Shown: positions 26,258-37,968, counted from the stretch's first letter. The stretch is 64,000 bases of DNA from an uncultured Gemmatimonadaceae bacterium (GCA_963790305.1 CAWBOC010000003.1:122479-186478), one strand, 5' to 3'. Translations and numbers: made by a program. The notes: generated from the sequence alone by a model not told the origin.

Positions 26258-26521
26258 CTATCCCGGGAAGCGAGGCCACATGCCACTCTCTCCACGCTCG
26301 CGGACGAACAGCGCCTGTCGACAGAGCTTGTGCAGTGCCTCGGCGGGGAGCTCCAGCCAATCTGGAGGGATGGGCGCGAGACGCCGTTTCTCCCAGGATG
26401 ACTCGAACGCCAACCAGCCCTCAGCGAGCTCCGGCAGGACGGGACGCGTTCCGACTCGCGGATACACCTCCCACACCGCCCACCGTCGGCCCTGCAGATC
26501 GGTGAATTCCCTGTGCGCCAC
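26258..26521 (-). CDS. Small conserved protein, paralog P1 of an unassigned family (W-x-V-W ... GWL-x-FE ... EKRRLAP-x-P)
   Basis: Within ORF 26258..26593(-). A GTG preceded by GAGGAG gives (M)AHREFTDLQGRRWAVWEVYPR...LPELAEGWLAFESSWEKRRLAPIPPDWLELPAEALHKLCRQA, which aligns along its length with the proteins at 26664 and 37687. Confidence 0.6.
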   Translation of the reverse strand: MAHREFTDLQGRRWAVWEVYPRVGTRPVLPELAEGWLAFESSWEKRRLAPIPPDWLELPAEALHKLCRQALFVRERGESGMWPRFPG

Positions 26522-26574
26522 GGCCTGGGCTCCTCGTGAGATCACCGAGCGAGGAAAACTGCACAATGGGTGCC

Positions 26575-26596
26575 TATATGTGATGTAGATCACATT
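26575..26596. promoter_or_regulatory. Near-consensus CRP/cAMP-receptor-type palindrome (TGTGA-N6-TCACA) in a divergent promoter region
   Basis: ATATGTGATGTAGATCACATTT compared with the textbook ideal AAATGTGATCTAGATCACATTT. It is centred about 65 nt upstream of the P1 start and about 78 nt upstream of the P2 start. Confidence 0.6.
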
Positions 26597-26663
26597 TTGG
26601 CCGTGAGGGATAGGACGCGATTCGAGTGATGAGGCGCGTCGCTTGCGGACCCAGCGGCCCCCT

Positions 26664-26942
26664 ATGGCCTATGCGGAGTTCACGGATCGAGTGGGAAAAC
26701 AGTGGCGAGTGTGGCACACGCGCCCGCTGTCCGCGGCGCTCACGACCCTTCCGGAGGCCTGGAAGGAGGGCTGGCTCACCTTCGAGTCGGGGGACGAAAA
26801 ACGACGGCTCGCGCCCGTTCCCGCGGGATGGGAACACCTGACTCCAGAGCAACTCGAGATGCTATGCCAGGTGGCGGAGCCGACCGCCCTCTCTCCGCGC
26901 GCGCACGATCCGCTGCGGCGCGACGAGCGGAGCGCGGAATAG
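26664..26942 (+). CDS. Small conserved protein, paralog P2 of the same unassigned family
   Basis: From MAYAEF within ORF 26643..26942: MAYAEFTDRVGKQWRVWHTRP...LPEAWKEGWLTFESGDEKRRLAPVPAGWEHLTPEQLEMLCQVAEP. Confidence 0.65.
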   Translation: MAYAEFTDRVGKQWRVWHTRPLSAALTTLPEAWKEGWLTFESGDEKRRLAPVPAGWEHLTPEQLEMLCQVAEPTALSPRAHDPLRRDERSAE

Positions 26943-27260
26943 ATGCGCGAGCACGAGAAGCCGGATCGGAGGAACTCTCCGCTCATTCTCATCTTCGAGC
27001 ACCGCGTCTACTTCCGGGATCACGCGGGCGAGCACTGGCGCGTGTACGACATCTTCGTCGCGCCTGACGAGCGCGGCCGTGAGCGGCGCTTCCCCGTGAT
27101 GCCGCCGGACAAGCGCGCGGTGCATCGCGAGTTCATCGCGCGGTCGGGAGAGCGACGCGAGTACACGTTCCTCGCTGACTCCCTGCGGGGGATGCCGCTC
27201 TTCGTTCACCAGCTTGCTCGCCAACTGGGCCTCGCGAAGATCGTCCACGAGAAGAAATAG
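26943..27260 (+). CDS. Small hypothetical protein, possibly a distant relative of the P family
   Basis: Intact 105-aa ORF starting immediately after the P2 stop codon (no gap), reading VYFRDHAGEHWRVYDIF...ERRFPVMPP...LFVHQLARQL. This echoes the F-x-D-x-x-G-x-x-WRV(W/Y) and RR(L/F)-x-P motifs of P1-P3. Confidence 0.5.
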   Translation: MREHEKPDRRNSPLILIFEHRVYFRDHAGEHWRVYDIFVAPDERGRERRFPVMPPDKRAVHREFIARSGERREYTFLADSLRGMPLFVHQLARQLGLAKIVHEKK

Positions 27261-33302: not shown

Positions 33303-34028
33303 CTAACGGGCGTGCCCGATCCACCGATTCGTCGCATCCAGCACCGCCAGCACGCTCGCCGTCTCGGGACTGTCCTTGATCTCGCACGTGCCGCTCAAGA
33401 AGGCGCTCTCGCGCCCCCATCGCGCCGTGAGACCCACGATCACGAACTCCCGGTCGAACGCATCGATGAGCTTGCAGCCATCCAGCGCCAGCTGGCGCGA
33501 CTCGCCTTCCGCCTGGCCGATGGCGAGAACCGCCGCACGCGCCGCCAGTTCCGCGCGCGAACGCTCGGTCTCCGCTCCCTCGGCCTCTCCTATGTACGAC
33601 GCATCACCTTTTCTGAGCGTCACCCGGCACGTCACGCCCTTCGTGCGCGAGCGCCGCACCTCCACATCCTCGAAATAGACGCGGCGTTTGTTCGCTGCCT
33701 CCTCGAGAATCGCGGCCTCCGCCGCACGCACTTCGGGCGCCGGCTTCGGCGTCTCGACGGTCGTCGCCACCGAAATCTTTCGATGATCCACGCGCATGCT
33801 CAGGTGCGCGATCAGCGCGCTCTCGATGTTGCGCACCGTCTGCTTCGGCGGCACCTCCGCCGTCGTCAGCACATGGATCTCATCCACCGCACCGTTGTCG
33901 CTCGCGACGATGCGCACCGACACCACGCCCGGCAGCGTCGCGAGCAACTCCTCCGCGCGCTTGATGGGGAGCACGCTGCCAGCGATTGGGCTGGCAATCG
34001 TCGGATGCGGGGCAGGAGTCGCGGCCAT
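33303..34028 (-). CDS. Hypothetical 241-aa protein, co-transcribed with the sigma54 activator
   Basis: Intact ORF 27 nt downstream of the activator stop. It has two modules (LPGVVSVRIVASDNGAVDEIHVLT...KQTVRNIESALIAHLSMRVDHRKISV and VTCRVTLRKGDASYIGEAEGAETERSRAELAARAAVLAI). No family recognised. Confidence 0.5.
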   Translation of the reverse strand: MAATPAPHPTIASPIAGSVLPIKRAEELLATLPGVVSVRIVASDNGAVDEIHVLTTAEVPPKQTVRNIESALIAHLSMRVDHRKISVATTVETPKPAPEVRAAEAAILEEAANKRRVYFEDVEVRRSRTKGVTCRVTLRKGDASYIGEAEGAETERSRAELAARAAVLAIGQAEGESRQLALDGCKLIDAFDREFVIVGLTARWGRESAFLSGTCEIKDSPETASVLAVLDATNRWIGHAR

Positions 34029-34055
34029 TGCGGCTTCGAAGTGAGACTGCGCGGA

Positions 34056-35725
34056 CTACAGGAGGGACGACAAGGCGGGAGCGGCGCGAAGCCGCCGAGT
34101 CAGCAGAACCGGTTCACGCTCGGGACGACGGGCGTTTTCGGCACGGGCCAATATGAGATACAAGGCTCGCGAAATCAAGGAACTACGTTCCTCCGGCACA
34201 TTATACTCTCTCAACTTTCTGTAGAGCGTGCGCTCGCCGATCGCCAGCATCTCTGCGGCCTTTCTTCGGTTTCCACGCGCACGCCGCCAGCGCCTGCCTG
34301 ATCGCGGCACTGCTCGATCTCTTCCATCGTCATCCCCGGCGCGATCTGGATGACGTCCGAGGGCTGCTCGCGGTGCCTCGATGGCGTGCTGAGCTGCCGA
34401 GCTGCGAACTGCGGAGCTTTGTACGTCACCGATCCACTGCACCGTCCGGTTGGCGCACCTCGTCCAACCTTCTCCGCAGCTCCTCCACCTGGAGCTTCAG
34501 CTCCACCATGCTGCGGACGATGAACTCCAGCTCGCGCCCGGCTACGCCCTCGGTCGCGCGCAGCACCGGACCCACGTGCACCGGCAACAGACGCGGGGCT
34601 CCGCCGTCGCGGATCTCGCGCGGGATGTCCTCGGCCCCGATCTCGCGGCCGGGCGACAGCACCACCATGCTCTCCACCAGGTTGCGCAGCTCGCGCACGT
34701 TCCCCGGCCACGGAGTAGCTCGACAGGATCTGCATCGCCTCGGCCGAGATGCCCTTGAACTCCCGGCCGTGCGCCTGGGAGAACTCGCGGACGAACTTCC
34801 GCACCAGGAGCGGGATGTCCTCCGGCCGCTGGCGCAGCGGCGGCAGGTAGATGTGGAGAACGTTGAGCCGGTAGTAGAGGTCGGGACGGAAGCTTCCCTC
34901 CTCCACGTGCTCGCGCAGCGGACGGTTCGTCGCCGCCACCACCCGCACGTCCACGCGAATCGGTGAGACGCCGCCGAGGCGCATGATCTCGCGCTCCTCG
35001 AGCGCGCGGAGGAGCTTCACCTGCGTCGGTGGCGGCGCCTCGCCGATCTCGTCGAGAAAGAGCGTCCCCGTGTGCGCCAGCTCGAACCGCCCGAGCCGTC
35101 CGCTCGGCGGCTCCGGTAAACGCGCCCTTCTCGTGGCCGAACAGCTCGCTCTCGAGCAGCGTCTCGGGGAGCGCGCCGATGTTCACCGGGATGAACGGCT
35201 TCGCGCGGCGCGGGCTCAGCTGGTGGATGGCGCGCGCGACGAGCTCCTTGCCCGTCCCGCTCTCCCCCTCGATGAGCACGGTGCTCGACACCGGCGCCAT
35301 CTGCTCGATCTTGACCAGCACTTCGCGGATCGCGTCGCTCTCCCCGATCAGCCCGGTGATCTCGGCGAGACGCGCGCCGCTCGAGGATGCGCTGGATGCC
35401 GTCGAACACCTCGTTCACGTCCACCGGCTTCGTCCAGATCTCGACGTAGCCGAGCGCGCGGAGGCGATCGCGAAGCGTGGGATCGTCGAGGTCGGAGAGG
35501 CCGACGACGGCCGTCCCCTCCCACAGCTGCCGCTTCACGAGCTGCACGTTCGGCTGGTCGACGAGACCGCCGGTGAGCACGATGACGTCGGGCTTCTGCT
35601 TCTCGACGGCGGTGCGCAGGTCGTCGTACGGCGACACGACCTCGGTCTCGACGCCGGCGCGCTCGAAGCAGATTCTTGAGGCGGACCGCCGGCTCGACGT
35701 CGGTGAGGGTGATCAGGACCTTCAT
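34056..35725 (-). pseudogene. Sigma54-dependent transcriptional activator (NtrC family) with an atypical receiver domain, about five frame breaks as assembled
   Basis: MKVLITLTDVEP (tail of ORF 35348..36601), then ORF 35017..35637 (receiver-like, ...IWTKPVD), 34542..35321 (GESGTGKE Walker [11 protein letters not shown]), 34211..35020 (LFLDEIG, RVVAATN, LYYRLNV), 34426..34698 (VRELRNLVE) and 34056..34442 (Fis-type HTH: GNRRKAAEMLAIGERTLYRKLREY). Confidence 0.8.
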
Positions 35726-37610: not shown

Positions 37611-37640
37611 GATCACATTTGTGATTGGGCCTATATCGCG
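37611..37640. promoter_or_regulatory. Motif cluster shared with the P1/P2 control region (GATCACATTT, GTGAT, GCCTATAT), and a possible promoter of P3
   Basis: GATCACATTTGTGATTGGGCCTATATCGCG. The same three words occur at 26571-26597 in a different order. TGATCA-N16-TATATC is a plausible -35/-10 pair about 50 nt upstream of the P3 ATG. Confidence 0.4.
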
Positions 37641-37686
37641 GTGTGGATAAGGTCGGGCGCACCCTTTGCGCATTGGGGACGGGAGT

Positions 37687-37968
37687 ATGGCCTACGCCGA
37701 GTTCCCCGATCGAGAAGGCAGGTCCTGGCGAGTGTGGCACACTCGCCCCCGGCTCGCGGACGTTCTCTCCCGGCTGCCTCTGGACTGGAAGGGCGGGTGG
37801 CTGACCTTCGAGTGCGAGGGCGAGAAGCGGCGGCTCGCACCCGTTCCGCCCGGATGGGAAGACTTTTCGCCGGCACGCCTCGATCTGCTACGACGTATGG
37901 CGGAGCCGACGACCACGGGGGCGATCGCCAGAGACGTTCTCCGCCGCGAGGAGCAGCAGCGGCGATAG
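37687..37968 (+). CDS. Small conserved protein, paralog P3 of the unassigned family
   Basis: From MAYAEF (GGGAG RBS) within ORF 37666..37968: MAYAEFPDREGRSWRVWHTRP...LPLDWKGGWLTFECEGEKRRLAPVPPGWEDFSPARLDLLRRMAEP. Confidence 0.65.
   Translation: MAYAEFPDREGRSWRVWHTRPRLADVLSRLPLDWKGGWLTFECEGEKRRLAPVPPGWEDFSPARLDLLRRMAEPTTTGAIARDVLRREEQQRR

Follow-up and report, generated by a model that had tools for sequence, protein, structure and literature searches.

A CRP-type operator located between two divergent genes for small proteins, P1 and P2, in the genome of an uncultured Gemmatimonadaceae bacterium appears to be bound by a CRP homolog, Crp1, and to be shared by two promoters of the sigma-54 type. 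From the sequence evidence set out below, we estimate the probability of this reading at roughly 0.6. The operator, ATATGTGATGTAGATCACATTT, occupies positions 26576-26597 (unstranded) of the window, by which we mean the whole 64-kb stretch of DNA analysed (C3:122479-186478 of an assembly of 4.31 Mb in 13 contigs, 66% G+C). An earlier note on this DNA had placed it at 26575-26596, one base too far to the left, and had proposed that it is a CRP-type operator common to both genes. This proposal was supported in part. The genome encodes a candidate regulator and a cyclase, and the motif is over-represented and conserved. The perfect palindrome that the note had included does not hold: only 9 of the 11 position pairs of ATATGTGATGTAGATCACATTT are complementary, and the true arms are ATGTGAT and ATCACAT (7+7), flanking a non-palindromic GTAG.

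The core TGTGA-N6-TCACA lies at 26579-26594 and is centred at 26586.5. As had been stated earlier, the site agrees with the symmetric E. coli CRP consensus AAATGTGATCTAGATCACATTT at 20 of 22 positions, both half-sites are exact and the spacer between them is 6 nt long; it thus has the sequence expected of a CRP operator, TGTGA-N6-TCACA within a 22-bp site like AAATGTGATCTAGATCACATTT. From the centre there are 65.5 nt to the GTG of P1 (26521) and 77.5 nt to the ATG of P2 (26664), in agreement with the approximately 65 and 78 nt claimed. A chance origin, which the earlier note considered very unlikely, was so on every count: the genome-wide expectation for at least 20 of 22 consensus matches is 1.1e-5, none of 100 dinucleotide-shuffled versions of the window contained a match with up to three mismatches to the consensus, and the operator is the sole 22-mer in the whole 4.31-Mb genome with at least 17 of 22 matches. 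When the spacing of TGTGA and TCACA was varied from 0 to 12 nt, ten genomic pairs were found at 6 nt and zero to two at each other spacing. From this, the half-site pair at N6 spacing can be taken as a signal that is used in this genome.

The same divergent arrangement of P1 and P2 was present in six other genomes of the genus. In the alignment of the seven gaps, 25 columns were invariant, and 24 of these were confined to three blocks: TGC plus GGCA in the P1 promoter, GTGA plus TCACA in the operator, and GGCG plus TTGC in the P2 promoter. The operator spacer and flanks differed in every one of the seven genomes, with GTGA and TCACA fixed. Core positions 6 and 11 varied non-complementarily among the orthologs (for example TGTGAC...ATCACA), which points to protein half-sites and not to an RNA stem; as the half-sites are also kept as sequence, we rejected the reading of the palindrome as an RNA hairpin. 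Neither an Rfam RNA nor a terminator was detectable in the gap. Within its 142 bp, compared across the seven genomes, no conserved block besides the palindrome presented itself as an enhancer candidate for P1 or P2; enhancers usually lie 70-150 bp upstream. On these grounds, the operator is almost certainly a real, conserved and functional protein-binding site.

P1 (87 aa, GTG start, 26258-26521, minus strand) is a small protein of a family without assignment and has orthologs in other genomes of the genus. P2 (92 aa, ATG start, 26664-26942, plus strand) is its paralog (51% identity, E 2e-20). Directly after the P2 stop codon begins a 105-aa ORF (26943-27260, plus strand) with a positive codon-usage coding score, which is probably co-transcribed with P2. 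The P family comprises seven members in this genome, one of them at window position 37687, and members were found in 16 of 41 related genomes. Searches of Pfam and NCBIfam returned no match for P1, P2 or the 105-aa ORF. The AlphaFold model of P2 (pLDDT 82) consists of four strands and short helices, and a fold search with it found no PDB match at E<=0.001. A single-protein scan of named genomes with the P family gave one irrelevant match of 34 residues. The codon-usage gene caller employed here is crude and missed P1 and P2 themselves, so that the intergenic and coding labels of the regulon scan described below are approximate.

Both genes are probably served by sigma-54-type (-24/-12) promoters, as judged from their elements. 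The predicted promoter of P1, AGGCACCCATTGTGCA, lies at 26560-26575 on the minus strand (GG at 26574/26573, GC at 26562/26561), that of P2, AGGCGCGTCGCTTGCG, at 26632-26647 on the plus strand (GG at 26633/26634, GC at 26645/26646). Each has the GG-N10-GC layout and agrees with the sigma-54 consensus TGGCAC-N5-TTGC(A/T) at 9 of 12 positions; GGCA/TGC of the former and GGCG/TTGC of the latter are invariant in the seven genomes and their spacers vary. With transcription predicted to start at the usual 12 nt past the GC of the -12 element, the starts would fall at about 26549 for P1 and about 26658 for P2. The operator centre would then be at about -37.5 of P1, where the operator lies four bases upstream of the -24 GG, and at about -71.5 of P2. 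For P2, this prediction leaves a leader of no more than about 6 nt. P2 orthologs with 15-17 nt from GC to ATG (this genome, G004 and G008) have no Shine-Dalgarno sequence; among the four with 32-34 nt, GAGG or GGAG lies 3-6 nt ahead of the start codon in G001-G003, and G005 has just a weak GGGG. This pattern agrees with the predicted position of the P2 start.

No sigma-70-type promoter was detectable in the gap, and a placement of the operator typical of class I/II activation at such a promoter (-41.5, -61.5, -71.5 and so on) was accordingly not found; this placement is a trait of the usual CRP mechanism and not of the site class. The genome encodes rpoN (C6:195032-195508) and about 14 sigma-54 activators (enhancer-binding ATPases, PF00158). 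One activator gene lies in the window (about 34000-35700, minus strand); its AAA+ match is split over the frames C3:157560-157829 and 157328-157576, no single ORF spans it, and the split is a frameshift or an assembly error. The AAA+ match of a second activator (C5:664503-665007) is split likewise. Sigma-54-like words are frequent by chance at 66% G+C, one being present within 100 nt of 11.7% of random intergenic centres. Strong TGGCAC-N5-TTGC matches numbered 80 in the genome, as opposed to 291 in the reversed-genome control, and 39 of the 80 extended at least partly beyond the called genes; these genes account for about 86% of the sequence.

The layout seen at P1 recurs at another member of the family. 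Upstream of the C9:487150 paralog, and likewise of its six orthologs, four or five bases separate the palindrome from a following GGCA(C/T)-N5-NTGCA, and in every case 24-26 nt lie between the middle of the palindrome and the GC of the -12 element. In this genome, P1 and the C9 paralog were the sole places with such a tight composite of operator and sigma-54 element. Opposite the C9 paralog stands a strongly conserved divergent promoter, TGGCAG-N5-NTGCAA. The gene on that side (G000 C9:486414-486917) encodes a 167-aa protein of a family without assignment and has the best-conserved sigma-54-type promoter of the set, TGGCAGGCATCGTGCAA (predicted). Two other elements were observed at this locus. 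Between the divergent promoters there is a conserved word, CGTTAGG(C/T), which on the other strand reads as the over-represented GCCTAACG (seen at G000 C9:486950-487040 and in the orthologs L013, L014, L024-L026 and L028), and a TTCCGG-N3-CCGGAA palindrome is partly conserved.

At the third paralog (ATG at 37687), the control region (37611-37670, plus strand) retains one half-site, GATCACA at 37611-37617, and a sigma-54-like element, GGGCGCACCCTTTGCG, at 37655-37670 upstream of the gene. In G004, G008 and G005, its orthologous counterparts are the regions on the P2 side, and these keep the full palindrome. Between the degenerate palindrome and the sigma-54-like element lies a perfect DnaA-box word, TGTGGATAA (37642-37650); at the corresponding position, G004 and G008 have the identical word and G005 has TGTGGATAAC.

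We examined how the motif is used in the rest of the genome. The ten exact TGTGA-N6-TCACA sites fall into two classes, three of the Rex type and seven CRP-like. The Rex-type sites, TTGTGAA-N4-TTCACAA (G000 C6:446744, C9:603785 and C13:34326), correspond to the consensus of the Rex operator (PMC2883068). One of them precedes rex, which is divergent from an arginine-deiminase-like gene; another precedes an atpA-like gene, and the last, followed by a TATAAT box, precedes the gene for a multihaem cytochrome c. A Rex protein is encoded in the genome, its Put_DNA-bind_N plus CoA_binding architecture being confirmed. Any scan with a CRP matrix must exclude these three Rex operators. Among the CRP-like sites, six of seven have the form TGTGAY-N4-RTCACA (the one at C10:17515 has G at core position 6), as do all 16 sites associated with the P family.

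From these 16 sites, the operator being one of them, a matrix with the consensus AATTGTGATGTACATCACAATT was built. The matrix scan, a check proposed in the earlier note, found 15 genomic sites of at least 17 bits and none in the reversed genome; ten of the 15 were intergenic according to the crude gene calls. The operator ranked first with 31.7 bits, as a training site. Further targets included three OmpA-family genes, a BrkB/YihY membrane protein and small unassigned proteins, and several of the CRP-type sites were conserved within the genus. Across the 41 related genomes, TGTGAY-N4-RTCACA occurred about 75 times, compared with twice in the reversed control. The motif thus occurs in excess and at one specific spacing, lies mostly between genes and is kept at orthologous positions, as would be expected of a regulon. 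At a conserved unassigned gene for a 106-aa protein (MDRNDIVRALEERQ..., G000 C7:241721-242041), the CRP-type box TTGTGACGCACATCAC is centred 19 nt before the ATG, just past a TATGAT word; this position suggests repression.

The association of CRP-type boxes with sigma-54-like words was strong at first, such a word lying within 100 nt of 9 of the 14 sites in this genome against the background of 11.7%, and was reduced on checking. The sigma-54 'promoter' at C7:242050 proved false, overlapping the real ATG of the 106-aa gene, and the word before the OmpA-lipoprotein gene (C1:155312) is ambiguous because a TATAAT is conserved there and sigma-70 is equally likely. At an OmpA/Gly-zipper gene (C5:687539), a conserved TGGCACG-N4-CTGCC has upstream of it, at about -60, a conserved but degenerate box. 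In other genera, a sigma-54-like word was near 2 of 20 CRP-type sites, which is the background rate. Going by the sequences, the association is firm at two loci, P1/P2 and the C9 paralog together with the gene divergent from it; it also holds, with the degenerate box, at the OmpA/Gly-zipper gene. The sites away from sigma-54-like words in other genera fit a general regulator and not a dedicated enhancer protein, and the sequences suggest a regulator of general use, with sites that have become connected to sigma-54 promoters at certain loci in this genus.

This bears on the alternative that survives best, namely that the palindrome is the enhancer (UAS) of one of the approximately 14 sigma-54 activators, the Fis-type HTH dimer of which would read TGT(GA)-N6-(TC)ACA. 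P2 would then be activated from -71.5 and the gene divergent from the C9 paralog from about -102. Both flanking promoters look sigma-54-type and would need an activator, the gap offers no other conserved candidate for an enhancer, and 9 of 14 boxes in this genome lie within 100 nt of a sigma-54-like word, which likewise favours this reading. Three activators of the GAF-AAA+-HTH (NifA/FhlA-like) type and many of the NtrC type are encoded (their C-terminal HTH was read from ORF translations). TGT-N10-ACA is the word of NifA-type enhancers, and the palindrome fits this loose word, a trivial match. However, all five bases of each half-site are kept and not TGT/ACA alone, and the site is single where enhancers usually come in tandem. 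The distance of -37.5 at P1 and at the C9 paralog, kept within one base, is too close for looping, and that of -71.5 at P2 is borderline. Moreover, the motif is common in other genera away from sigma-54-like words and occurs within the genus also at promoters of sigma-70 appearance, and a well-suited, exceptionally conserved CRP with the helix RETVSR exists. We therefore consider the enhancer reading unlikely, and turn to this CRP.

No CRP/FNR-family gene is present in the window, as the earlier note had observed and a search of the 64-kb stretch bore out. The genome encodes four proteins with a CRP/FNR-type HTH, all outside the window. One of them, Crp1 (224 aa, G000 C9:186340-187011), is the candidate regulator; public gene calls contain the same 224-aa protein with cNMP_binding, HTH_Crp_2 and Crp domains, PF00027 being among the annotations. 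In the recognition helix of Crp1, SRETVSR lines up with SRETVGR of E. coli CRP, including the three base-contacting residues RE...R, and GE...RSA of its FGE...PRSA segment with the cAMP-binding cassette of the E. coli protein (the E. coli sequence used is consistent with the matches to CAP structures). Among proteins of solved structure, Crp1 is most closely related to M. tuberculosis CRP, C. glutamicum GlxR and Thermus CRP (E 1e-38 to 1e-31), and to E. coli CAP; the best NCBIfam model is CRP, with a score below the equivalog cut-off. Recognition helix and cyclic-nucleotide cassette are invariant in all 30 orthologs fetched across the order. Orthologs from the same genus are 98-100% identical to Crp1; in the remainder of the family and order, identity is 59-77%, with one divergent match at 46%. 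Since a protein with a CRP-like recognition helix is encoded, the reading does not fail for want of one, which the earlier note had named as a refutation. The search for cyclases that it had also called for found one class III enzyme (PF00211, C3:49570-50088).

Orthologs of Crp1 were found in 37 of the 41 genomes. Three of the four genomes without one have no exact site, and many genomes with Crp1 have none either; we dropped this comparison as a discriminator because the counts of exact sites are too small. Upstream of crp1 and of the cyclase gene there is no Crp1-type site of at least 8 bits. The neighbourhood of crp1 is conserved in L133-L136, metagenome contigs with an identical Crp1: rpmE-prfA lies divergently upstream, and downstream are genes for a Lactamase_B_2 protein and a GAF-HD protein, both possibly linked to cyclic nucleotides.

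The operator might instead be bound by another of the four CRP/FNR-type proteins, for instance the one encoded at C5:478990-479796, whose helix TRESISL keeps the Arg-Glu pair that reads GTG of the half-site. This protein lacks the third base-contacting Arg and the canonical nucleotide-binding cassette, however, and the remaining two read VRRAAVT and VRRASVT. Crp1 alone combines the full RE...R with CRP and GlxR as best structural relatives, which makes a different paralog an improbable binder. Still less probable is that the small proteins of the P family bind the palindrome themselves and autoregulate. The palindrome does recur before several family members across genomes, but the motif is likewise found upstream of unrelated genes and in genomes that have no family member. 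Furthermore, paralogs of 45-50% identity should differ in specificity, yet the half-sites are identical, and the AlphaFold model, as far as a prediction can tell, has no helix-turn-helix and matches no solved DNA-binding fold. That the operator is a site of Rex, the NADH/NAD+-sensing repressor, is hardly credible, even though Rex is encoded in the genome, its consensus contains TGTGA-N6-TCACA and 3 of the 10 exact sites belong to it: the operator reads TGTGAT...ATCACA, all 16 P-family sites have Y/R and never A/T at core positions 6/11 and lack the outer TT/AA, and the two site classes separate cleanly.

We infer from the above that Crp1 binds the operator, that sigma-54 uses the GG-N10-GC elements and that transcription starts where predicted, and propose the following model. 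A homodimer of Crp1 would bind the 22-bp operator in response to cAMP or another cyclic nucleotide, probably supplied by the single class III cyclase. One dimer would thereby sit between two divergent sigma-54-dependent promoters, that of P1 and that of the operon of P2 and the 105-aa ORF, and would most likely couple both to the cyclic-nucleotide signal. If both promoters are sigma-54-type, the dimer cannot use the textbook class I/II mechanism. Sigma-54 holoenzyme is unable to open DNA without an ATPase activator, and therefore Crp1 cannot be the sole activator; it would work with, or against, an enhancer-binding protein. By bending DNA and contacting the bound holoenzyme, Crp1 could have either of two effects: a) it might aid closed-complex formation and contact with the activator (co-activation, as at E. 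coli prpBCDE), or b) it might block the activator (as at E. coli glnAp2 and dctA).

The near-fixed spacing of 24-26 nt at two diverged paralog groups suggests stereospecific contact and not mere occlusion. In the literature, we found no characterised sigma-54 promoter with a CRP box in this position, centred at -37.5. A more far-reaching version of the model, which we regard as doubtful, holds that in this genus the CRP homolog has evolved into a partner that contacts sigma-54 RNA polymerase stereospecifically, with the position fixed at -37.5 directly next to the -24 element and one dimer serving two divergent promoters. Crp1 could in that case recruit or poise the holoenzyme; it might also replace the missing enhancer and IHF site, and the activator would then act from solution or over a very short range.

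Several known systems can be compared with the proposed Crp1-dependent arrangement. At the prp locus of E. coli and Salmonella, the promoters of divergent prpR and sigma-54-dependent prpBCDE are both CRP-dependent (Lee et al. 2005, summarised in PMC5566544). The CRP site likewise lies in the divergent intergenic region and the sigma-54 promoter needs CRP in addition to its activator, so that cyclic-nucleotide status is layered over an enhancer-dependent promoter, as it would be here. However, prp has only one promoter of the sigma-54 type, and its activator PrpR, the enhancer and the IHF site are known; at P1/P2, each of the two promoters has a sigma-54 appearance, and the box directly adjoins the -24 element on the P1 side (-37.5). 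At the E. coli sigma-54 promoters glnAp2, dctA and Pu, CRP-cAMP acts negatively, by DNA bending and contact with the alpha subunit; the CRP site of glnAp2 is centred at -51.5, and a bona fide box is present at -27.5 in Salmonella glnAp2 (PMC1865078, PMC3900584). These cases share with our model a CRP placed close upstream of the sigma-54 closed complex. Their CRP sites are weak or recruited and the main CRP regulon is sigma-70-type, whereas the operator described here is the best CRP box of its genome and conserved in position, and repression is one of two possible outcomes.

As for the protein, M. tuberculosis Rv3676, C. glutamicum GlxR and T. thermophilus CRP have the same domain order as Crp1, and the actinobacterial and Thermus homologs share the site type TGTGA-N6-TCACA. 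Crp1 differs from them in its E. coli-type third contact, RETVSR as against RETVNK. To our knowledge, the hosts of these homologs are mostly without sigma-54, and CRP acts there only at sigma-70-type promoters. The Rex operator has the same skeleton and is set apart by A/T at core positions 6/11 and the outer TT/AA, against Y/R and no such flanks here. CRP boxes, CRP homologs and the action of CRP at sigma-54 promoters are thus already known, and two divergent sigma-54 promoters sharing one consensus box are an unusual wiring, not an unprecedented one. What is new is the setting in an almost unstudied phylum, the shared consensus box, the conserved placement at -37.5 and the uncharacterised targets.

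Gemmatimonadota are a major soil phylum with few cultured members, and almost nothing is known about the control of transcription in them. The locus described here is compact, with about 100 bp, and offers an experimentally tractable test case. Were Crp1 not to bind it, a well-defined operator for another factor would remain. If Crp1 does bind, the CRP motif and a first regulon would be defined for the Gemmatimonadaceae, and co-regulation is the only functional handle on the small proteins of the P family. Should the proposed arrangement prove true, it would represent a natural integration of CRP into sigma-54 promoters at -37.5, a geometry unstudied in E. coli, and the action of Crp1 from this position would bear on how architectural proteins gate enhancer-dependent transcription. 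Finally, if Crp1 were indeed a stereospecific partner of the sigma-54 polymerase, the P family and at least one OmpA-type envelope gene would be under joint control of cyclic nucleotides and sigma-54.
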